DNA of 64,000 nucleotides from Candidatus Marinacidobacterales bacterium (GTDB taxonomy: Bacteria > Acidobacteriota > Vicinamibacteria > Marinacidobacterales > SMYC01), in assembly GCA_965262245.1 (NCBI GenBank), contig OZ253507.1:5319728-5383727 (forward strand), written 5' to 3'. The notes below the pieces were generated by a model that was given only the letters and a program-made list of their open reading frames with translations, ran no database searches and had not been told where the DNA came from. Below, piece by piece: positions 2 through 60,343 of the stretch. Position 1 is the stretch's first letter. Every line of letters begins with the position of its first letter. A program made the translations under genes and the position numbers.

Positions 2-631
2 AAGGAAGCTCCCTCCATGCAGGGCCAGCGCTTCGTATACTCGAATATTCCCGGCGAGTACCGCGCCCGCGAGCTGGGGCCGGCGCTCGGCCTCCTCGAG
101 AAGGCTGGCGTTGTACATCGGGTGCTCCAATCGCCTGGGAGTGGATGTCCGCTGCGAGCCGGAGCCCGGCCGGATCGGTTCAAGATCCTGTTTCTCGACG
201 TCGGGCTCACGCAGGCACTCCTGGGACTCAACACCGCGGAGCTGATCATCGACGGGGCGACGGCTGTCACTCATCGAGGGGCCATCGCTGAGGCCTTCGT
301 CGGGCAGGAGATAATCGCCTACGGCTTCCCCTGGGCAGGCAGAGAGCTGTTCTATTGGCATCGTGAGGCCCGGGGCTCGAGCGCAGAGGTCGACTACCTC
401 CTCGAGGATAGGGGTAAGGTCATTCCCATCGAAGTGAAGAGCGGGGTCCGTGGAAAGCTCAAGAGCATGCGTCTATTCCTCGAGAAGAACCGCGCGCTAA
501 GCCCGTTCGGGATTCGGTTCTCCTTACACCCCTTCTCCGTCGTGAACGACCTTCAGTCCTGGCCGCTCTACGCGGTTGCCGGACTGTTCCCTGAAAGTGC
601 CCCGCCGAACCTCGACCGGAACCCGAGCTAG
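2..631 (+). CDS. C-terminal part of an AAA-ATPase with a DUF4143-like domain, 5'-truncated by the window edge
   Basis: The ORF is open to the window start. The tail ELFYWHREARGSSAEVDYLLEDRGKVIPIEVKSG matches the EVDF..iEvK signature of DUF4143 ATPases. Confidence 0.5.
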   Translation, partial: KEAPSMQGQRFVYSNIPGEYRARELGPALGLLEKAGVVHRVLQSPGSGCPLRAGARPDRFKILFLDVGLTQALLGLNTAELIIDGATAVTHRGAIAEAFVGQEIIAYGFPWAGRELFYWHREARGSSAEVDYLLEDRGKVIPIEVKSGVRGKLKSMRLFLEKNRALSPFGIRFSLHPFSVVNDLQSWPLYAVAGLFPESAPPNLDRNPS

Positions 632-851: not shown

Positions 852-906
852 TGGAGCCGGCGAGAAGATTTGAACTTCCGACCTGCTGATTACGAATCAG
901 CAGCTA
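852..906 (-). pseudogene. tRNA 3' fragment (anticodon arm, T-arm, acceptor 3' strand, CCA); anticodon CGU (Thr)
   Basis: The minus strand reads TAGC-T-GCTGA-TTCGTAA-TCAGC-AGGTC-GGAAG-TTCAAAT-CTTCT-CGCCGGC-T-CCA. Upstream there is no proper D-arm and no matching 5' acceptor strand. Confidence 0.4.
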
Positions 907-1113
907 TGCTTTTCGCCCGCGCGCTTTTCGGTCGCCGCTCGAACATCCGTCGACGCAAAACAGGCGTCGCCTCCGTCACCCTCGAGGCAGCTTCCGACCT
1001 CGAAGGGCCTCTTTGTGAACGCTCGCGAACGCGAGAGCCTCTTCGGCTTCGTCGCCGAATCGCACGACTCGGCTAGACATCTTCTGCTCGCGGACGATGA
1101 TCGAAGTCGTGAC

Positions 1114-16495: not shown

Positions 16496-16908
16496 CGGCG
16501 CGATATCTCATCGACAAAAGCGCTCTCGCTCGGATGACTCACGAGTCGGTGAAGCAGCGGTTGGCCCCAATTATCGAGGCCGGAGAGGCAGCGACTTGCG
16601 CCTTTGTCGATCTGGAGGTGCTGTTCAGCGCGCGAAACCACGACGAGCACGTCAAGATACGACGGCGGCGGGAGTTAGCCTACGAGCGGGTCCCGTTAGC
16701 GGAGGACGTCTTCGCACGAGCTGTCGACGTTCAAGCCGAGCTCGCCCGATCCGGTCGCCACCGCGTACCCATCGCCGATCTACTCATCGCCGCCGCATCC
16801 GAGTCAGCGTCTTTGACCATCCTTCACTACGATAGTGACTTCGACACCATTGTCAGCGTGACAGGCCAATCGGCGCAGTGGGTCGTTCCGCAAGGAAGCG
16901 TCCCGTGA
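16492..16908 (+). CDS. vapC: VapC PIN-domain toxin
   Basis: A 138-aa ORF with PIN acidic residues (LIDKS.., DLEVL.., IADLLIAA.., HYDSDFD). Confidence 0.85.
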   Translation: MTARYLIDKSALARMTHESVKQRLAPIIEAGEAATCAFVDLEVLFSARNHDEHVKIRRRRELAYERVPLAEDVFARAVDVQAELARSGRHRVPIADLLIAAASESASLTILHYDSDFDTIVSVTGQSAQWVVPQGSVP

Positions 16909-51265: not shown

Positions 51266-51508
51266 GTGAAAGTCACCCAAAAGATCCAGCTCGAAGAAAA
51301 GGACCTCGACTTCATCGAAGCGGTCTTCTCTATCCTGGATTACAAGACCAAAAGCGAGTACATGCGGGAAGCGATTCTGGCCAAGATCCGTGATGACAAA
51401 AAAAAACTGCGCGAGATGAAGTGCCGGGAGGCGATGGAAGCCTACGGCGAGGAGACGACGGACAACGTCTTCGAATCCATCGAGGCGGACGATTTTGAAG
51501 ACCGGTGA
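51266..51508 (+). CDS. Antitoxin partner of the MazF-like toxin
   Basis: An 80-aa acidic-tailed ORF that overlaps the toxin gene by 14 nt. Confidence 0.6.
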   Translation: MKVTQKIQLEEKDLDFIEAVFSILDYKTKSEYMREAILAKIRDDKKKLREMKCREAMEAYGEETTDNVFESIEADDFEDR

Positions 51509-51854
51509 CGTTTACCTCGTGAATCTCGATCCCACCGTAGGTGACGAGATCCGCAAGCGGCGCCCGGTCGTGGTGCTCAACCCCGGGCACGATGAAAAGC
51601 TGCGCCTTTCGATCATCGTTCCGATTACGGCGTGGAACGCCCGTTGGGAGACCAATCCGTTCTTCTTGACCATCCACCCCGAGGGCCGCCACGGCTTAGA
51701 AAAGAAATCTGCCGTCGACTGTTTTCAATTGAGGGCCCTGAGTCACGGTCGTTTCGTGAAGAAACTCGGATCTTTGAATCGGTACGAGATCGATCACATC
51801 AAATCTTCGGTCGCGCTCATCCTCGGCATCGAACCGGAACACTGCGAGCTATAG
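51495..51854 (+). CDS. mazF: MazF/PemK-family endoribonuclease toxin
   Basis: The ORF reads GDVYLVNLDPTVGDEIRKRRPVVVLN..IIVPIT..AVDCFQLRALS. Confidence 0.8.
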   Translation: MKTGDVYLVNLDPTVGDEIRKRRPVVVLNPGHDEKLRLSIIVPITAWNARWETNPFFLTIHPEGRHGLEKKSAVDCFQLRALSHGRFVKKLGSLNRYEIDHIKSSVALILGIEPEHCEL

Positions 51855-55091: not shown

Positions 55092-55400
55092 CGTTCGACT
55101 GTTGGATTGGAATGTCTACGAAACAGAAAGGGCAATTCGTCGCTCTCGACCCGGATACGGGCGAGCTCCTGTGGAGCTCGAAAGGCCGCATGGGCGACAA
55201 CGCCGCCTTCGTGGTCGCGGGCGATACCTCCTCATTCTCGACAACAGCGCCGAGCTAGCTATCCTTCCGCAAGACGCGAAGGCGTTCGAGCCGCATCGGC
55301 GCTACCGTGTGGCGGACACGGAGACTTGGGCACATCCCGTTCCCACGAAAGTAGGCATTCTTATCAAAGAGCTCGATAGCCTGGCCCTTGGAGGTAAGAA
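55092..55400 (+). pseudogene. C-terminal fragment of a PQQ-like beta-propeller protein, one frameshift
   Basis: GQFVALDPDTGELLWSSKGRMGDNAAFVVAGD is followed, in another frame, by LLILDNSAELAILPQDAKAFEPHRRYRVADTETWAHPVPTKVGILIKE. It starts directly after the preceding gene's stop. Confidence 0.55.
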
Positions 55401-55644
55401 GCAAAAAACTCTTTACAAAACGGCAACTACAGTGTATACTCAATTCGGACGTGAAATGAAACGCACCGCAAAGCAACTCTCGCATCTGACCCGGGCCGGT
55501 AAAGGCCGGAGGACGGCGGAGCTGTCTATGTCATCGACCATTGAATCCTCCTCGACGTGGCAAATAAAGCTTCGAGGGATTTATTTGAGTTTCGTCGAGA
55601 GAAGGGGCTTCATGAACTAGGACCCAAGGCGACCTAGCCAATGA

Positions 55645-55676
55645 AGCCCGACGCCGAAAGGCAGTCGGGCTTTTTC
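55645..55676 (+). terminator. Rho-independent terminator-like hairpin
   Basis: The hairpin is AGCCCGAC-GCCGAAAGGCA-GTCGGGCT followed by TTTTT. Confidence 0.6.
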
Positions 55677-55705: not shown

Positions 55706-55780
55706 GCTCCTGTGGTGTAGGGGTTAGCATGCGAGACTTTCAATCTTGTGATCCGGGTTCGAGTCCCGGCAGGAGTACCA
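55706..55780 (+). tRNA. tRNA-Glu (UUC)
   Basis: Hand-folded cloverleaf: acceptor GCTCCTG/CAGGAGT, anticodon arm CGAGA-CTTTCAA-TCTTG, T-arm CCGGG-TTCGAGT-CCCGG, A73, encoded CCA. Confidence 0.85.
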
Positions 55781-55789
55781 AAGTGAAGA

Positions 55790-55876
55790 GGAAGGGTACC
55801 CAAGTGGTAAGGGGCCGGTTTGCTAAACCGGTAGGTCGTTCGCGGCGCGAGGGTTCAAATCCCTCTCCTTCCTCCA
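55790..55876 (+). tRNA. tRNA-Ser (GCU), class II
   Basis: Hand fold: acceptor GGAAGGG/TCCTTCC, anticodon arm CCGGT-TTGCTAA-ACCGG, long variable arm, T-arm GAGGG-TTCAAAT-CCCTC, encoded CCA. Confidence 0.85.
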
Positions 55877-55881
55877 TTCGT

Positions 55882-55958
55882 AGGCGATTAGCTCAGTTGC
55901 GAAGAGCGCCTGTTTTACACGCAGGAGGCCGAAGGTTCGACTCCTTCATCGCCTACCA
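55882..55958 (+). tRNA. tRNA-Val (UAC)
   Basis: Hand fold: acceptor AGGCGAT/ATCGCCT, anticodon arm CCTGT-TTTACAC-GCAGG, T-arm GAAGG-TTCGACT-CCTTC, A73, CCA. The D-loop reads AGTTGCGAA, so GG is not in its usual place. Confidence 0.8.
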
Positions 55959-55966
55959 CTTTCTTT

Positions 55967-56042
55967 CCGGCATGGGGTGGCTGGTTGTGACCGCACGTCT
56001 GATAAGCGTGTAAGCATCGTTCGATTCGATGATGCCGGACCA
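55967..56042 (+). tRNA. tRNA-Ile (GAU)
   Basis: Hand fold: acceptor CCGGCAT/ATGCCGG (C1-G72), anticodon arm CACGT-CTGATAA-GCGTG, T-arm CATCG-TTCGATT-CGATG, A73, CCA. Confidence 0.8.
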
Positions 56043-56064
56043 GATTGACGGGCGTTGGTGTAGT

Positions 56065-56139
56065 AGCGGAGTGGCGCAATGGTAGCGCGTCGGGCTCATA
56101 ACTCGAAGGCCGAGAGTTCGAATCTCTCCTCCGCCACCA
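56065..56139 (+). tRNA. tRNA-Met (CAU) with an A1xC72 mismatch
   Basis: Hand fold: acceptor AGCGGAG/CTCCGCC, D-arm GCGC-AATGGTA-GCGC, anticodon arm TCGGG-CTCATAA-CTCGA, T-arm GAGAG-TTCGAAT-CTCTC, A73, CCA. Confidence 0.8.
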
Positions 56140-56205
56140 AACTTGAAGAGAGAAAAAGAAGGAGTAGGCAGATGGAATCCGAAGACGGTTCGTCATCCTC
56201 GATGA

Positions 56206-56292
56206 GGAGGGTGCCGCTGAATGGCCGGCAACCGGTCTCGAAAACCGGGGTGGCTCGCAAGGCCAAGGGTTCGATTCCTTCACCCTCCTCCA
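56206..56292 (+). tRNA. tRNA-Ser (CGA), class II
   Basis: Hand fold: acceptor GGAGGGT/ACCCTCC, anticodon arm CCGGT-CTCGAAA-ACCGG, long variable arm, T-loop TTCGATT, CCA. Confidence 0.8.
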
Positions 56293-56359
56293 GCCTTCAC
56301 CCGATGCAGTTCACGTGGGCTTCGGCTAGGTAAACCCTGGTAGTTGCGCTGCGAAGGCT

Positions 56360-56396
56360 GTCCGCCGTAGCGCGAAGCGCGAAGGCGGACTTTATT
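56360..56396 (+). terminator. Terminator-like hairpin inside the tRNA array
   Basis: The hairpin is GTCCGCC-GTAGCGCGAAGCGCGAA-GGCGGAC followed by TTTATT. Confidence 0.4.
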
Positions 56397-56487
56397 GTAG
56401 CGGCTGCGGAGACGGTGGACCGCGCCGGGTTGTAGCCCGGGATTCGCGAGAGCGGCGTTGGGGGTTCGAATCCTCCCCGCTACACCA
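56397..56487 (+). tRNA. tRNA-Tyr (GUA), class II, irregular anticodon arm
   Basis: Hand fold: acceptor GTAGCGG/CCGCTAC, D-arm GCGG-AGACGGTGGA-CCGC, anticodon region CCGGG-TTGTAG(C)-CC(C)GG, 18-nt variable arm, T-arm GGGGG-TTCGAAT-CCTCC, A73, CCA. Confidence 0.7.
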
Positions 56488-56493
56488 GATCGT

Positions 56494-56568
56494 GCCGGCG
56501 TGATTGCAACTGGCAGACACACTCGGCTCAAACCCGAGTTGGTGGTGGTTCGAGTCCACCCGCCGGTA
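56494..56568 (+). tRNA. tRNA-like gene with anticodon CAA (Leu by anticodon) but a short variable arm; poor D-stem, no encoded CCA
   Basis: Hand fold: acceptor GCCGGCG/CGCCGGT, anticodon arm CTCGG-CTCAAAC-CCGAG, 5-nt variable loop TTGGT, T-arm GGTGG-TTCGAGT-CCACC, A73, followed by TCA. Confidence 0.5.
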
Positions 56569-56587
56569 TCAAGTTTTAGTTTCAAGT

Positions 56588-56663
56588 GCTTCGGTAGCTC
56601 AGCAGGTAGAGCGTCCCGTTGAAGCCGGGAAGGGCGTTCGTTCGATTCGGACTCGGAGCACCA
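56588..56663 (+). tRNA. tRNA-Phe (GAA)
   Basis: Hand fold: acceptor GCTTCGG/TCGGAGC, D-arm GCTC-AGCAGGTA-GAGC, anticodon arm TCCCG-TTGAAGC-CGGGA, T-arm GTTCG-TTCGATT-CGGAC, A73, CCA. Confidence 0.85.
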
Positions 56664-56669
56664 ATTAGC

Positions 56670-56745
56670 GCGACCGTGGTGTTCAACGGCAGCATGCGAG
56701 CCTTCCAAGCTTGGGGTGCGGGTTCGAGTCCCGCCGGTCGCTCCA
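56670..56745 (+). tRNA. tRNA-Gly (UCC)
   Basis: Hand fold: acceptor GCGACCG/CGGTCGC, anticodon arm CGAGC-CTTCCAA-GCTTG, T-arm GCGGG-TTCGAGT-CCCGC, U73, CCA. Confidence 0.85.
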
Positions 56746-56755
56746 AATAGTACGT

Positions 56756-56832
56756 AGCTCCGTAGCCCAACTGGCAGAGGCAACGGACCGAGATTCCGTC
56801 CAGTGGGAGTTCGAATCTCCCCGGAGCTACCA
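56756..56832 (+). tRNA. Class-I tRNA with anticodon GAG (Leu by anticodon), C33, A73
   Basis: Hand fold: acceptor AGCTCCG/CGGAGCT, D-arm GCCC-AACTGGCAG-AGGC, anticodon arm ACGGA-CCGAGAT-TCCGT, 5-nt variable loop CCAGT, T-arm GGGAG-TTCGAAT-CTCCC, CCA. Confidence 0.7.
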
Positions 56833-56856
56833 GTTCGAGGAGAACGAAGATGATTT

Positions 56857-56931
56857 ACGCCCGTAGTTCAACGGCAGAATGGCTGGCTTTTAACCAGTTC
56901 GATGGAGGTTCGAATCCTCCCGGGCGTACCA
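56857..56931 (+). tRNA. tRNA-Lys (UUU)
   Basis: Hand fold: acceptor ACGCCCG/CGGGCGT, D-arm GTTC-AACGGCA-GAAT, anticodon arm GCTGG-CTTTTAA-CCAGT, T-arm GGAGG-TTCGAAT-CCTCC, A73, CCA. Confidence 0.85.
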
Positions 56932-56944
56932 ACGGCTTCTCGCT

Positions 56945-57014
56945 TCCGGGAGTTCTGGGACGGCAGGGTGTCCAAAGCCCAAGCAGCAGGGTTCGATTCC
57001 TTGTCCCGGTGCCA
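56945..57014 (+). tRNA. Short (70 nt) tRNA-Trp (CCA)-like gene with a reduced D-arm
   Basis: Hand fold: acceptor TCCGGGA/TCCCGGT (U1xU72), only ~11 nt where the D-arm should be, anticodon region (A)GGGT-GTCCAAA-GCCC(A), T-arm CAGGG-TTCGATT-CCTTG, G73, CCA. Confidence 0.45.
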
Positions 57015-57020
57015 ATCATC

Positions 57021-57096
57021 AGCTCGGTAGTCCAACGGCAGAGACAGCGGGCTTAGACCCCGTCTAGTGAGAGTTCGAATCTCTCCCGAGCTACCA
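57021..57096 (+). tRNA. Canonical class-I cloverleaf with anticodon UAG (Leu by anticodon), A73
   Basis: Hand fold: acceptor AGCTCGG/CCGAGCT, D-arm GTCC-AACGGCAG-AGAC, anticodon arm GCGGG-CTTAGAC-CCCGT, 5-nt variable loop CTAGT, T-arm GAGAG-TTCGAAT-CTCTC, CCA. Confidence 0.8.
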
Positions 57097-57114
57097 AATC
57101 AAGATCTCATTTGA

Positions 57115-57190
57115 GCGTCAGTGGTCTAACCGATAAGGCACTTGGCTTCGAACCAAGGCGTTGCGGGTTCAACTCCTGCCTGGCGCTCCA
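57115..57190 (+). tRNA. tRNA-Arg (UCG)
   Basis: Hand fold: acceptor GCGTCAG/CTGGCGC, D-arm GTCT-AACCGATA-AGGC (no GG in the D-loop), anticodon arm CTTGG-CTTCGAA-CCAAG, T-arm GCGGG-TTCAACT-CCTGC, U73, CCA. Confidence 0.8.
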
Positions 57191-57191
57191 T

Positions 57192-57247
57192 GGCCCTGTG
57201 GCTGAAGGGAGTAGGCGCTCGATTCCTAATCGAGATCATGCGCGTTC
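57192..57247 (+). tRNA. tRNA-Arg (CCU), 5' portion (interrupted in the T-loop by the IS3-family element)
   Basis: Hand fold: acceptor GGCCCTG, D-arm GCTG-AAGGGAGT-AGGC, anticodon arm CTCGA-TTCCTAA-TCGAG, variable loop ATCAT, T-stem GCGCG, then TTC. Confidence 0.75.
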
Positions 57248-57317
57248 CCTCTGTGCCAACATCGCTGAGACACTTCGCCCCTTGAAATTAGTGTAGAGGG
57301 TGGAGGAGGATCAACGC

Positions 57318-57758
57318 ATGAGTATTTTGATTGAGAGAGAGACCTCGGCGGGATCGGCAGGAGCCCGTAGGGCGACTAGAGATCCCGCCGGCCGCGATGC
57401 GGCGGGGGTCGAGGATCCCGAAGTGCGCGAGCAAGCGAAGCGTCGACGCTTTAGCGCGGAGTACAAGCTGCGGATAGTGCGTGAGGCCGATGCCTTCGGC
57501 AAGGGTGACGGTGACGTTGCTGCTCTTCTGCGTCGAGAGGGCTTGTACTCGTCGCAATTATCGAGTTGGCGTCGCCAACGTGACGAGATCGCCAAGGTTG
57601 GGATGACGTCGAGAAAGCGAGGCCGGAAGGCGAAGGCAGAGGATCCACGGGTCAAGGAGCTCGAGCGCGAGAACGCCCGGCTCCAACGTCGCCTGGCTCG
57701 GGTGGAGACGATGCTGGAGATCCAAAAAAAACCTCCGAACTACTGGGGATCCCCCTGA
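57318..57758 (+). CDS. IS3-family transposase OrfA
   Basis: The ORF carries an HTH/leucine-zipper OrfA (RRRFSAEYKLRIVREA.., ..LERENARLQRRLARVETMLEIQKK). It ends just after the A8 run. Confidence 0.8.
   Translation: MSILIERETSAGSAGARRATRDPAGRDAAGVEDPEVREQAKRRRFSAEYKLRIVREADAFGKGDGDVAALLRREGLYSSQLSSWRRQRDEIAKVGMTSRKRGRKAKAEDPRVKELERENARLQRRLARVETMLEIQKKPPNYWGSP
57724..57731 (+). promoter_or_regulatory. A8 slippery run, candidate -1 programmed frameshift site for OrfAB
   Basis: The sequence is CCAAAAAAAACC. The -1 frame continues as KKTSELLGIPLNPLESDEND. Confidence 0.55.
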
Positions 57759-57789
57759 ATCCACTCGAGAGCGACGAGAACGACTGATC

Positions 57790-58920
57790 GTGGCGGCCGA
57801 GGAGCTGGCGGGGCGGATTGGGCAAACGGCGGAAGCCTGCGAGGCTCTGGGTGTGGCTCGTTCCACGTTGTATCGCAGGCGCCAGCCGGTGACGCCCAAA
57901 CCGAAGCGTCGTCCTCGGCCGCACCGAGCTCTCGACGAAACTGAGCGCGAGGAAGTCCTCGGGGCCTTGCACTGTGAGCGGTTCGTCGACAAGGCGCCCG
58001 CTCAGGTGTGGGCTACGCTTCTGGACGAGGGAACCTACCTCTGCTCGATTCGCACGATGTATCGGATTTTGGAGGAGCACGGCGAGGTCCGAGAGCGCCG
58101 GAACCAACGGCGCCATCCGAACTACACCAAGCCGGAGCTGTTGGCCGAAGCGCCGAACCAGGTTTGGTCGTGGGATATCACGAAGCTTCGTGGCCCCCTC
58201 AAGTGGACCTACTACCTCTACGTCATCCTCGACATCTTCTCCCGCTACGTGGTTGGCTGGATGCTGGCTCACCGAGAAAGTGCCGCGCTCGCCCAACGCC
58301 TCATCGCCGAGAGCTGTCGCAAGCAGGACATTGAACCCGACCAGCTCACCCTTCACGCGGACCGTGGCAGCTCGATGAGGAGCAAGCCCGTGGGTCTGCT
58401 CCTGGCTGACCTCGGAGTTACCAAGACCCACTCCAGGCCTTACGTCTCGAACGACAATCCCTACTCCGAGTCTCAGTTCAAGACGATGAAGTACTGTCCT
58501 CAGTTTCCGAGCCGCTTTGGTTCCGCCGAAGACGGCCGGCTATTCTGCTGCGGTTTCTTCGACTACTACAATTTTCACCCCCGGCACTCGGGAATCGGCC
58601 TTATGACACCGGCCGACGTTCACTATGGTCGAGCCGAACAGCTCACCACCGCTCGGCGCCAGATCCTTCTCGAAGCTCAACAGGCTCATCCCGAACGCTT
58701 CGTTCGCGGAACGCCGCAACCGCCCGTTTTGCCTCCGCAGGCCTGGATCAACCCGCCGCTGGAAAAAACGACGCTCCACGATGCCGCACAAGCCCCTCTC
58801 GCGGCGGCGTCCATACCTGGGGTACCTCCTTTTTCTGCTTCACGCAACGAGATCTTGATCGATGTTGACGTCGATCGCGCCGACCTCACGAGTCTCCCCA
58901 CCATAATCGAGGCTCACTAA
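57790..58920 (+). CDS. IS3-family transposase OrfB (rve integrase core)
   Basis: The ORF reads VWSWDITKL..YLYVILDIFSRYVVGWM..LTLHADRGSSM..SNDNPYSESQFKTMKY..HSGIGLMTPADVHYG. Confidence 0.85.
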   Translation: MAAEELAGRIGQTAEACEALGVARSTLYRRRQPVTPKPKRRPRPHRALDETEREEVLGALHCERFVDKAPAQVWATLLDEGTYLCSIRTMYRILEEHGEVRERRNQRRHPNYTKPELLAEAPNQVWSWDITKLRGPLKWTYYLYVILDIFSRYVVGWMLAHRESAALAQRLIAESCRKQDIEPDQLTLHADRGSSMRSKPVGLLLADLGVTKTHSRPYVSNDNPYSESQFKTMKYCPQFPSRFGSAEDGRLFCCGFFDYYNFHPRHSGIGLMTPADVHYGRAEQLTTARRQILLEAQQAHPERFVRGTPQPPVLPPQAWINPPLEKTTLHDAAQAPLAAASIPGVPPFSASRNEILIDVDVDRADLTSLPTIIEAH

Positions 58921-58961
58921 ATGCAGCTCGCGAGTGTCCCAAAGTTGTTGACATGTTCCGG

Positions 58962-58984
58962 TTCGAGTCGCGCCAGGGCCTCCA
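58962..58984 (+). tRNA. tRNA-Arg (CCU), 3' portion
   Basis: TTCGAGT-CGCGC-CAGGGCC-T-CCA complements the GCGCG T-stem and the GGCCCTG acceptor strand found 1.7 kb upstream. Confidence 0.75.
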
Positions 58985-59122: not shown

Positions 59123-60343
59123 CTAGACCGGTATCCTCGGCAAGTACGTGCGCGTGCGCGTCGCCATCCGGTAGGCGTTGGTCGCCCGCGGGGCAAGCAG
59201 TTCCAGCTCCACCTTGGTAATCCTCTGCTCACCCTGCTGTCCCCACAAAACGACTTCATCGCCGATGGCAACGTTCGGAGAGCCGGTGACGTCGACCATC
59301 ATGTGATTCGCGGTAATCGGCGCTACGACGCGATGACGCCGGCCGCGAATGAGCACGTCGGCCATGTTGGTGACAATGGGCGGATAGCCGTCGGAGTAGC
59401 CGCACGGGAGCGTCGCGATGCGCGTTTCCTTTCTTATCTGGTAGGTTCGATGATACGAAAGGGCGTCCCCCTCCTGCAGGGTCTTCACGTAGACGACACG
59501 AGTCTTGAAAGACATGACGGGCCGGATGCTCATGTTTTTCTGCCGTTCGGGCTCTAGTCCGACGAGACAGTTGCCCGGTCGCACCATATCGAGCCACGCG
59601 TAGGGAAACCGATCGACTTCGGCGGTCGATGCCGCGTGCCGGATGCCCGTCGCAATGCCTCGGCTCGTGGCCGCATCACAGATTTCCTCGATGCGTTCGA
59701 TCTGGACGGGATTGTAGTCATCGTCCTAGGTCATTGCGGTAAAGGTGGCCTCGATCTCGATGTTCGGCAGAGCTGCGACTCTTTCGATGAAGGCAAGGAC
59801 CTCGCCATGGGGAACGCCGACGCGCCCCATCCCAGTGTCGACGCATATGTGTACTTTCGCGGTCTTACCGAGTTTGCCAGCCTCTTCGGAAAGCACATCA
59901 ACGGCACCGGAATACACCGATTGGGAGATGTCGTGCTCGAGCAGTTCGGGGATTTCGCGGCGGGAGAACGGTCCCGCGTTCAAGATCATGCCTTCGATAC
60001 CACTCTGCCTCAACGTGGTAGCTTCACGCGTTTTCACAACCATGAAATGGCGGACTTCGCTATCCCTCTGCAACGCCGTCGCGATCTCGACGTCTCCGTG
60101 ACCATAGGCGTTGCATTTCACCACCGCCATGATGGGTCTATCGCCTATTCTTCTCCGGACTTCACGGACGTTGGACGCAAGGGCATCCATATCGAGCTCG
60201 ATCCATGGATCGATTTGCTCGTCCACGTCGAAATTTTCCGAGGACGGTCGCTGGCTCGACCCACGGGCGAGCTTGCCCGTGAGAAGCACTGCCATCGAAG
60301 CGCCTGCAACTCCCAGAAACTCTCTGCGTTTGGTATCGCCCAT
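59123..60343 (-). pseudogene. Alanine/amino-acid racemase with a Tat-type signal peptide, interrupted by one in-frame TAG (59726-59728)
   Basis: The signal is MGDTKRREFLGVAGASMAVLL. The PLP-Lys motif is AVVKCNAYGHG. Track ORFs 59726-60343 and 59123-59587 share one frame. The C-domain carries LPCGYSDGYP. Confidence 0.7.

Follow-up and report, generated by a model that had tools for sequence, protein, structure and literature searches.

A supernumerary tRNA array in an acidobacterial chromosome and the conserved leader, a probable attenuator, in front of it

Long arrays of supernumerary tRNA genes have been described in several bacterial lineages. For instance, the trn operon ("L-array") on plasmid delta of Anabaena PCC 7120 contains 26 tRNA genes, is silent unless translation is stressed, and 23 of its 26 tRNAs are charged (Santamaria-Gomez et al. 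2021, PMC8421152). Its regulation is achieved through 9-nt promoter repeats over the -10 box, and long arrays in both Anabaena and Acidithiobacillus are poorly transcribed under standard conditions (PMC8421152). Additionally, tRNA array units, whose published definition asks for at least 20 tRNA genes, are known from Acidithiobacillus, Firmicutes and Mycobacteriaceae (Tran et al. 2016, PMC4758250; Morgado and Vicente 2018, PMC5966550), and mycobacterial arrays are discussed as anti-defence (PMC12803027). Ribosome-mediated transcription attenuation, in turn, has been reported for leaders such as trpL, hisL, ilv and thr and for antibiotic-responsive leaders such as bmrB-bmrCD (PMC4191407; PMC1183508). 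Here, a 16-gene array in the 10.2-Mb genome of a Candidatus Marinacidobacterales bacterium (GCA_965262245.1, contig OZ253507.1) is compared with these systems. The window refers to the whole stretch analysed, 64,000 nucleotides at positions 5,319,728 to 5,383,727 of the contig.

Composition, redundancy and spread of the array

The array of sixteen tRNA or tRNA-like genes, as given in the preliminary description, was confirmed, including the anticodons and the spacers of 1-104 nt (Table 1). ARAGORN called 14 head-to-tail tRNA genes at 55706-57190, of which 11 scored above the gathering score of Rfam RF00005 and tRNA-Tyr was recovered in the E-value scan, while Ser-CGA was taken by the clan relative tRNA-Sec and only Ile-GAU received no Rfam match. 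The 15th gene, Arg-CCU, is real but split in its T-loop by an IS3-family element, and the intact gene exists in the syntenic contig L025 (G and L numbers designate the sources of related copies). The 16th, Trp-like, is degenerate and was seen by neither program. Fifteen of the 16 genes encode CCA, although this is not a mark of the array since an encoded CCA is also the rule for housekeeping tRNAs in this genome (52 of 57). The D-loop AAC(T)GGCAG is shared by the Gly, Lys and Leu genes.

The flanks hold the IS3-family element, a Mutator-family transposase, an alanine racemase split into two ORFs, a MazF/PemK gene and a PIN gene. However, the upstream flank also holds ordinary genes (esterase, phosphodiesterase) that are syntenic in L025.

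The 57 other tRNAs of the genome form a complete dispersed set covering all 20 amino acids and all 16 array anticodons, demonstrating that the array is supernumerary. Related arrays in the same gene order occur in G001, G003, G009, G012 and G031 and on metagenome contigs, in different neighbourhoods; the family is patchy and present in a few of 55 genomes of the order. The tRNA bodies are far better conserved than the spacers, with 88% versus 63% identity to L028 and 88% versus 54% to L026. The acceptor and T-arm sequences shared between the genes at 56756 and 57021, which the preliminary description took as duplication within the array, do show duplication within the family, whereas the gene order is inherited from a common ancestral array and was not made in this genome.

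Table 1. Coordinates of the array, its leader and neighbouring elements within the window
Position	Strand	Feature	Support
16504-16848		PIN gene	
51495-51854		MazF/PemK gene	
55412-55440	+	Sigma-70-type promoter, TTTACA-17 nt-TATACT, preceded by an A-tract	10 of 12 consensus matches; both hexamers and spacing conserved in all 15 leader copies
55456-55620	+	Leader ORF of 54 codons (MKR...RRGFMN, stop TAG)	Open with the same length, start and stop in 15 loci; 0 stops in frame 0 against 1-5 in nearly every other frame; no indels; pN/pS 0.70; no Pfam match
55533-55599	+	Hairpin inside the leader ORF (AUCGAC...GUCGAG)	Predicted by RNAalifold; 14 pairs 86-97% paired; 3 pairs with changes on both sides
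55604-55649	+	Antiterminator: GGGCUUCAU (55605-55613, last codons of the ORF) pairs with AUGAAGCCC (55641-55649), enclosing the hairpin CUAGG/CCUAG, which holds the stop codon	-22.9 kcal/mol, z -5.0; MFE form of the whole leader in 4 of 10 copies; pairs invariant
55643-55675	+	Intrinsic terminator: 13-pair G+C-rich stem with one bulge, then UUUUU; 5' arm overlaps the antiterminator	-23.3 kcal/mol, z -5.7; nearly invariant in 15 copies; 30 nt before the first tRNA
55706-55780	+	tRNA-Glu(UUC)	ARAGORN; Rfam 63.5 bits
55790-55876	+	tRNA-Ser(GCU), discriminator U73	ARAGORN; Rfam 59.2 bits
55882-55958	+	tRNA-Val(UAC), A1-U72; CAC in L025	ARAGORN; Rfam 66.3 bits
55967-56042	+	tRNA-Ile(GAU) with G8 and an atypical D-arm	ARAGORN only; conserved in at least 6 related arrays, with a compensatory 7:66 change in G031
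56065-56139	+	tRNA-Met(CAU) with initiator-like features (A1xC72)	68.8 bits; relatives keep three G-C pairs in the anticodon stem, this copy has one G-U
56159-56205	+	Strong Shine-Dalgarno (AAGGAG), ATG 56172 and Ser-codon-rich mini-ORF running into tRNA-Ser(CGA)	Present in all 12 arrays that hold this tRNA; L027 has extra in-frame Ser codons
56206-56292	+	tRNA-Ser(CGA), discriminator U73	ARAGORN; best Rfam clan hit tRNA-Sec, 43.1 bits; about 80% identical to a tRNA of the Anabaena trn operon
56397-56487	+	tRNA-Tyr(GUA), damaged: G-G mismatch in the anticodon stem and 1 nt missing in the variable arm relative to L025	ARAGORN, called ambiguous; Rfam 36.6 bits
56493-56570	+	tRNA-Leu(CAA), short variable arm; 3' end TCA where relatives have CCA	ARAGORN; Rfam 40.2 bits
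56588-56663	+	tRNA-Phe(GAA)	ARAGORN; Rfam 58.4 bits
56670-56745	+	tRNA-Gly(UCC)	ARAGORN; Rfam 37.4 bits
56756-56832	+	tRNA-Leu(GAG), short variable arm, A73 and C33	ARAGORN; Rfam 51.6 bits
56857-56931	+	tRNA-Lys(UUU), A1-U72	ARAGORN; Rfam 67.2 bits
56945-57014	+	Trp(CCA)-like element lacking the 3' half of the D-arm; probable pseudogene	No ARAGORN or Rfam tRNA call; conserved in L025, G001 and G003; window copy has lost 7 nt at its 5' edge, giving U1xU72
57021-57096	+	tRNA-Leu(UAG), short variable arm and A73; CAG in L025	ARAGORN; Rfam 57.4 bits
57115-57190	+	tRNA-Arg(UCG), discriminator U73	ARAGORN; Rfam 54.7 bits
57192-57247	+	tRNA-Arg(CCU), 5' part up to T54-C56	Sequence; intact orthologue in L025
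57248-58960	+	IS3-family insertion sequence: OrfA with HTH_Tnp_1, OrfB with rve; target duplication GTTC	Pfam; about 30 near-full copies, 95-99.5% identical, in the genome, with ends at 57247/8 and 58960/1
58961-58984	+	tRNA-Arg(CCU), 3' part (T-loop, acceptor 3' strand, CCA)	Sequence; comparison with L025
61913-63280		Mutator-family transposase	

A conserved leader ORF, antiterminator and terminator

Notably, every array of the family starts with a near-consensus promoter, a 54-codon ORF and an intrinsic terminator, with no room for another promoter, and no promoter-like site lies between the terminator and the first tRNA. All 15 full leader copies found lie directly upstream of tRNA genes, and the leader occurs in 4 of 55 genomes of the order and in none of 400 other genomes sampled from the phylum. 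The 3' end of the ORF pairs with the 5' arm of the terminator; antiterminator and terminator are mutually exclusive and about isoenergetic, and the whole-leader MFE flips between the two forms among homologues. The 3' 90 nt of the leader is almost invariant, thus the antiterminator and terminator pairings have no covariation support, and the Shine-Dalgarno before the leader ATG is weak (GGA).

The leader ORF in the window samples 15 of the 16 array anticodons, against a null of 11.3 +/- 1.7 (P about 0.017) and 11 in each other frame, and across the family frame 0 averages 17.8 of 21, against 14.2 and 13.5 in the other frames. In spite of this breadth, the fraction of leader codons read by array tRNAs is not raised (57-69% against a 59% baseline); the test of breadth was post hoc, and the 15 leaders are related to each other.

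An independent second case was found in the same genome, where a five-tRNA array (Asp, Pro, Asn, Gln, Arg-GCG) is preceded by a leader of unrelated sequence but the same layout, with a 35-codon ORF, an antiterminator of -25.6 kcal/mol and a terminator of -19.5 kcal/mol. The G003 homologue has only in-frame indels, and each of the five tRNAs is hit by exactly two leader codons (P 0.0025).

The region is best explained, with moderate confidence and in the absence of expression data, as an accessory tRNA operon of the L-array kind, acquired by horizontal transfer and redundant with the tRNA set of the cell, whose leader probably acts as a ribosome-mediated attenuator. In the proposed mechanism, the array has no promoter of its own, and transcription starts at the strong promoter, runs through the leader ORF and meets the terminator before the first tRNA. 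It is inferred that ribosomes which follow the polymerase closely and reach the stop codon cover GGGCUUCAU, followed by formation of the terminator, and the tRNAs stay off. It is also inferred that when decoding is slow (antibiotics, tRNA shortage or damage), this segment is free to pair with the terminator arm, the polymerase reads on, and the spare tRNAs are made and cut out. As the leader touches codons for nearly all tRNAs of the array, it may test the supply of just these tRNAs. Translation of the ORF, the switching and the benefit all remain inferences, and Anabaena regulates its array without such a leader.

Other explanations of the array and its leader

The possibility raised in the preliminary description, a backup tRNA set that buffers against anticodon-nuclease toxins or defence systems, is partly supported. 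A backup role as such fits the conserved leader, a design that would release the tRNAs when translation is slow, whereas a specific tie to anticodon nucleases (VapC, MazF, PrrC-like enzymes, colicins, phage-defence systems) is not shown and remains tentative. This reading concerns the selective benefit rather than the switch, and is compatible with the attenuator model. The genome holds 31 PIN and 18 PemK/MazF genes, one MazF lies 3.6 kb upstream of the leader promoter, and toxin-antitoxin-like genes sit next to the leader elsewhere, namely BrnT in L040 and HTH_3/YdaS-like genes in L041 and L043. In addition, the array carries an initiator-like tRNA-Met, a type of tRNA that some VapC toxins may cleave, and the anticodon stems differ from those of the housekeeping copies. 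However, toxin genes are so common here that one PIN and one PemK gene in a 64-kb window is weak evidence, no nuclease gene is conserved next to the arrays, and the anticodon loops are mostly the same as in the housekeeping isoacceptors, those of Lys, Glu, Arg, Gly, Met and Val being the same or nearly the same.

It is less likely that the array is a cryptic relic, namely a decaying and effectively silent remnant of a past transfer behind an unrelated small gene with its own terminator, in which the alternative pairing is incidental. The window copy is indeed partly decayed, with the IS in Arg-CCU, the damaged Tyr, the lost CCA of Leu-CAA, the degenerate Trp-like element, changed G18/G19 in Arg-UCG and the loss of Ile-UAU and Thr-CGU, and G001 and G003 hold only fragments, hence a partly relic status cannot be excluded. 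In contrast, the better conservation of tRNA bodies than spacers across the family, the kept cloverleaves with 9 tRNAs above 50 bits in Rfam, the constant association of leader and array under a single promoter, and the same design with a different sequence at the second locus argue against this reading.

A functional small protein (a regulator or a toxin-like peptide of the mobile unit) encoded by the leader ORF, with an insulating terminator and tRNAs made by constitutive leakage, is not excluded, since 54 codons is long for a classical leader peptide, the length is constant, the C-terminus (V-D/E-R-R-G-F-M) and the central AELSMLST motif are conserved and gene callers predict the ORF in several assemblies, but it is improbable given the weak protein constraint with nearly equal change at all three codon positions, the C-terminal codons that are invariant even at third positions and coincide with the RNA pairing segment, the lack of a Pfam family, and the unrelated peptide with the same RNA layout at the second locus.

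Comparison with described systems

Phage tRNA clusters are likewise dense tRNA blocks, and single members of the array match tRNAs of cluster C1-type mycobacteriophages, but no phage genes lie nearby and the leader pattern was not found in the viral contig collection.

The leader shares with the trpL, hisL, ilv, thr and bmrB-bmrCD leaders a promoter, a short ORF, a terminator and an antiterminator whose 5' strand lies in or next to the ORF and would be masked by a ribosome at the stop codon. Different from these leaders, the genes controlled are tRNAs instead of enzymes or pumps, the ORF is longer than the classical ones, and many codons are sampled rather than a run of one regulatory codon; no description of such control of tRNA arrays was found in the literature searched.

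The array units of Acidithiobacillus, Firmicutes and Mycobacteriaceae are also high-density clusters tied to mobile DNA that add isoacceptor redundancy. The present array, with 16 genes and at most 17 in the relatives seen, falls below the published threshold, and no integrative element, plasmid or phage frame was found around it.

The Anabaena trn operon is the best plasmid hit, and both arrays consist of one-strand, densely packed, non-periodic, supernumerary tRNA genes with some pseudogenes among the members, a patchy distribution that points to horizontal transfer, and leucine tRNAs with a short variable arm. The present array is smaller, it belongs to Acidobacteriota, which the survey of Santamaria-Gomez et al. 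listed among phyla with accretive arrays only, and it lacks an HNH endonuclease upstream, the ORF at the equivalent place being unrelated. Control would be exerted by a leader ORF and terminator instead of promoter repeats. Overall tRNA identity to the Anabaena genes (0.57-0.78) is no higher than to the host's own, and common descent therefore rests mainly on the odd Leu tRNAs, while the proposed response to impaired translation matches the induction seen in Anabaena.

The tRNA genes and their genomic setting

ARAGORN identified 14 tRNA genes arranged head to tail, of which 11 were scored above the gathering score by the Rfam tRNA model and Tyr reached 36.6 bits in the E-value scan, while Ser-CGA was captured by the related tRNA-Sec model and only Ile-GAU was missed. 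Inspection of the sequence revealed a further gene, Arg-CCU, which begins 1 nt after Arg-UCG, is cut after T54-C56 by an insertion, and resumes beyond it with its T-loop, acceptor 3' strand and CCA. The uninterrupted gene is present in a syntenic environmental contig, L025. The insertion belongs to the IS3 family, featuring an OrfA with HTH_Tnp_1 and an OrfB with rve/rve_3 domains, a GTTC duplication at both ends and about 30 copies of 95-99.5% identity in the genome. Notably, an element with the same left end is inserted in another array of the family, on L028, at a different place after Leu-GAG. The sixteenth, Trp-like element was recognized by neither program, lacks the 3' half of the D-arm and is conserved as such in three relatives.

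In agreement with the preliminary description, 15 of the 16 genes encode CCA and the spacers are 1-104 nt, although an encoded CCA is also the norm for the other tRNAs of this genome (52 of 57). The flanks were likewise correctly described, with the IS, a Mutator-family transposase and an alanine racemase split into two ORFs, a disrupted gene just downstream of the array; a PemK/MazF gene and a PIN gene are encoded in the same window. The window lies in a single 10.2-Mb contig of 60% G+C, in which ARAGORN found 57 tRNAs outside the array, mostly as single genes or small groups, covering all 20 amino acids plus selenocysteine and every one of the 16 array anticodons. The array is therefore supernumerary.

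Individual members show unusual features. The tRNA-Met has an unpaired 1:72 position (A x C) and, in most relatives, three consecutive G-C pairs at the foot of the anticodon stem, so it looks like an initiator tRNA, although one of these pairs is G-U in the window copy. A strong Shine-Dalgarno (AAGGAG) and an ATG open a mini-ORF rich in Ser codons (MESEDGSSSS...) that runs straight into tRNA-Ser(CGA). The Shine-Dalgarno, ATG and Ser codons are present in all 12 arrays with this tRNA, even where the upstream sequence differs, and the related array L027 has extra in-frame Ser codons, raising the possibility of a ribosome-dependent control of the maturation of this tRNA. In addition, a G+C-rich hairpin followed by CUUUAUU lies in the 104-nt spacer before tRNA-Tyr (-28.4 kcal/mol and z -2.4 for the folded 66-nt stretch), and this spacer, which is shared with L025 only, may hold an internal weak terminator.

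A DNA search of 40 relatives uncovered pieces of the array at 80-93% identity in five genomes of two families. ARAGORN analysis of these loci and of metagenome, ENA and Logan contigs revealed one underlying gene order, namely (Asn, Asp), Glu, Ser-GCU, Val, Ile-GAU, Ile-UAU, Thr-CGU, Met, Ser-CGA, Tyr, Leu, (Leu-UAA), Phe, Gly, Leu-GAG, Lys, (Trp-like), Leu, Arg-UCG, Arg-CCU, on which lineage-specific losses, gains and anticodon changes are superimposed. L025 shares the upstream genes of the window (phosphodiesterase, esterase) and has 17 intact genes. Relative to L025, the window copy has lost Ile-UAU and Thr-CGU, which are carried by the related arrays L025, L028, L022, L027, L031 and L043, and it has a G-G mismatch and a 1-nt deletion in Tyr, TCA for CCA in Leu-CAA, a changed G18/G19 in Arg-UCG, and the IS. 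Across deeper comparisons the tRNA bodies are much better kept than the spacers, with 88% vs 63% identity to L028 and 88% vs 54% to the related locus L026, which argues for selection on the tRNAs in the family as a whole.

Neighbouring protein genes differ from locus to locus, and no conserved neighbouring protein that might define a mobile element was found. A 105-aa HTH_3 (XRE-type) gene lies directly upstream of the leader promoter in the related loci L041 and L043 and a 105-aa ORF sits at the same place in L028, whereas a BrnT-like toxin gene and two small ORFs precede the leader in L040.

Coordinates of the array, its leader and associated features (window positions unless a genome or contig is named)
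Feature	Position	Strand	Remark
Isolated weak tRNA match	855-920	-	Rfam 32.7 bits, not called by ARAGORN; may be a tRNA fragment
PIN gene	16504-16848		
PemK/MazF gene	51495-51854		
172-aa frame upstream of the array	55102-55620		Probably not a gene
Hairpin inside the leader ORF	55533-55599		
5' partner of the antiterminator	55605-55613		Codons 50-53
Leader stop codon	55618-55620		
3' partner of the antiterminator	55641-55649		
Terminator 5' arm	starts at 55643		
14 tRNA genes called by ARAGORN	55706-57190	+	
tRNA-Met	56065-56139		
Shine-Dalgarno and Ser-codon mini-ORF	56159-56333		ATG at 56172
Hairpin in the spacer before tRNA-Tyr	56360-56396		
Leu tRNAs with a 5-nt variable loop	56493-56570, 56756-56832, 57021-57096; L015:2802-3338		
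Trp-like element	56945-57014		
IS3-family element	57248-58960; L028 about 180-265		L028: element with the same left end
tRNA-Arg(CCU), resumed 3' part	58961-58984		
Alanine racemase, disrupted	59123-60343	-	C-terminal-domain ORF 59123-59587, N-terminal-domain ORF 59726-60343
Second array, five-gene cluster	genome 3852366-3852831		
Second array with its leader	L034:3040-3832 (genome C1:3852039-3852831)		Outside the window
Partial and complete leader in tandem	L038:3136-3470 and 3419-3750		
Genes upstream of other leaders	L041:3110-3427, L043:340-657, L040:2542-3504		

The conserved leader module

Alignment of the DNA in front of four arrays revealed a conserved block. A pattern taken from this block recovered three of these genomes and six metagenome contigs on which it directly precedes tRNA genes, while two of the eight metagenome hits (L029 and L030) have no tRNAs. 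A profile of the encoded peptide resulted in five more loci on ENA and Logan contigs, again all followed by tRNA genes. The leader sequence occurs in 4 of 55 genomes of the order and in none of 400 other genomes sampled from the phylum; the distribution is patchy. Nothing was found in viral contigs, and one hit in a Hyphomicrobiaceae MAG is a chance match inside a coding region without tRNAs. In one environmental genome (L038), the promoter plus the first two thirds of the leader ORF (49-aa product) are duplicated in tandem directly upstream of the complete leader.

In 15 copies the block consists of an A-tract and TTTACA-17-TATACT (10 of 12 consensus matches), an ATG-to-TAG frame of exactly 54 codons, a small hairpin containing the stop codon, and a 13-pair terminator followed by UUUUU. 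The first tRNA starts 25-35 nt later in most copies and no promoter-like site lies between, so the array can only be transcribed by reading through the terminator. Frame 0 has no stop in any copy, whereas nearly every other frame has 1-5, and no indels were observed. Change is nearly equal at the three codon positions with a pN/pS of 0.70, and no Pfam family matches, which is the signature of a frame kept open for translation rather than for its product, although the Shine-Dalgarno of the leader is weak and the conserved C-terminus of the peptide could have a role of its own. No Rfam family (riboswitch, T-box) matched the leader even at E up to 10. The longer frame just upstream of the array showed neither similarity to the HNH homing endonuclease that precedes cyanobacterial arrays nor a Pfam domain; the conserved unit is the 54-codon ORF in another frame.

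The last 90 nt of the leader are almost invariant, including third codon positions. In this stretch GGGCUUCAU is complementary to AUGAAGCCC, which is part of the 5' arm of the terminator. The two mutually exclusive predicted structures, antiterminator and terminator, are about equally stable (-22.9 and -23.3 kcal/mol, z about -5 and -5.7), and the predicted MFE of the whole leader flips between them among homologues. A ribosome with the stop codon in its A site would cover the 5' partner and leave the terminator free to form, while a ribosome held up earlier than about codon 44 would leave the 5' partner free to pair first. Covariation was uninformative for these pairs because the columns do not vary, whereas the hairpin inside the ORF does show three compensatory pairs.

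The share of leader codons read by array tRNAs was not raised, at 57-69% against a 59% baseline. Breadth of sampling, in contrast, was raised. The window leader touches 15 of its 16 array anticodons, against 11.3 +/- 1.7 in a null from host genes (P 0.017) and 11 in each of the other two frames. Across the family, frame 0 touches 17.8 of 21 on average, against 14.2 and 13.5 in the other frames and 15.3 in shuffles. Rare codons are also over-represented, with 3 to 11 per leader against a null mean of 2.9. These results are suggestive, but the tests on codon sampling were designed after seeing the data and the sequences are related to each other.

A second array and the proposed attenuation

A five-gene cluster (Asp, Pro, Asn, Gln, Arg-GCG) elsewhere in the same genome again duplicates housekeeping genes. 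It is preceded by TTGACA-17-TACCAT, a 35-codon ORF and a terminator, after which comes the same GTTTAGGGGA...TTTTTTTGAG tail as in the first family. The ORF and stems are unrelated in sequence to the first leader, yet the layout is the same, as CUCGAGGGGG near the end of the ORF pairs with the terminator's 5' arm CCCACCUCGAG around a hairpin that holds the stop codon (antiterminator -25.6, terminator -19.5 kcal/mol). The homologue in the related genome G003 differs by indels of 9 and 3 nt, so the frame is kept. Notably, this leader contains exactly two codons for each of the five tRNAs, and the probability that all five are hit at least twice in random 35-codon stretches of host genes is 0.0025.

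It is well supported that the array is a horizontally spread, supernumerary tRNA operon, partly decayed in this genome. It is more likely than not that its transcription is gated by a ribosome-mediated attenuator that opens when decoding is slow. If so, leader-peptide attenuation, known for amino-acid and resistance genes, would extend to tRNA supply, giving a mechanistic basis for the backup tRNA idea and a compact sensor of decoding capacity; no description of leader-peptide control of tRNA arrays was found in the incomplete literature searched.

More tentatively, the leader ORF of a family of mobile bacterial tRNA arrays might act as a decoding-capacity meter, sampling codons for nearly every tRNA behind it and opening the terminator when any of them is decoded slowly. 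The spare tRNAs would then be made on demand, for example after tRNA cleavage by toxins or defence nucleases or under ribosome-targeting antibiotics, the design would have evolved at least twice in this one genome, and the nested Ser-codon mini-ORF may in addition tune maturation of tRNA-Ser(CGA). The preliminary description had proposed a backup against anticodon-nuclease toxins or defence systems. Toxin genes are indeed abundant in this genome (31 PIN, 18 PemK) and toxin-antitoxin-like genes abut some arrays, but no specific link was found and most anticodon loops equal the housekeeping ones.

Relation to known tRNA arrays

The tRNA array unit of Tran et al. 2016 requires at least 20 tRNA genes, a number not reached by the 16 genes here, which include one split and one degenerate gene, although the density of about 10 per kb exceeds the required 2 per kb. 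Santamaria-Gomez et al. 2021 (PMC8421152) defined long, horizontally spread, supernumerary arrays as L-arrays, and the present array conforms in its same-direction genes at operon-like spacing (16 genes in 1.55 kb), its redundancy and its patchy distribution. That survey listed Acidobacteria among phyla with only accretive arrays; the finding places L-array-like elements in Acidobacteriota.

The best match among 72,556 plasmids is the trn operon of Anabaena/Nostoc PCC 7120 plasmid delta, followed by Tolypothrix and Nostoc plasmids, and among phages the best matches are tRNAs of large mycobacteriophages. Whole-gene identity to Anabaena tRNAs is no higher than to host tRNAs. The Anabaena operon, which has four such genes, carries, like the three Leu-anticodon genes of this array, Leu tRNAs of 75-78 nt with a 5-nt variable loop, whereas the host's own five Leu tRNAs are 84-88 nt. 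The short Leu-UAA of related arrays keeps over 20 nt of a typical Leu D-arm, so these are Leu tRNAs that lost the long arm. It has been stated that tRNA-Leu carries the long arm everywhere except animal mitochondria, and that E. coli LeuRS needs A73 and the D/T-loop tertiary contacts rather than the arm (PMC9976931). The array Leu tRNAs have A73, and leucine tRNAs without the long variable arm recur in such arrays in two phyla.

Anabaena is the only case in which a long array has been dissected. Its array is silent until translation is stressed, 23 of its 26 tRNAs are charged, and control is exerted at the promoter (PMC8421152). The attenuator proposed here would parallel this translational-stress induction by a different device, a switch suggested by the sequence itself that couples array transcription to ribosome speed, conserved in 15 loci and mirrored by an independent second locus whose leader codons match its five tRNAs.
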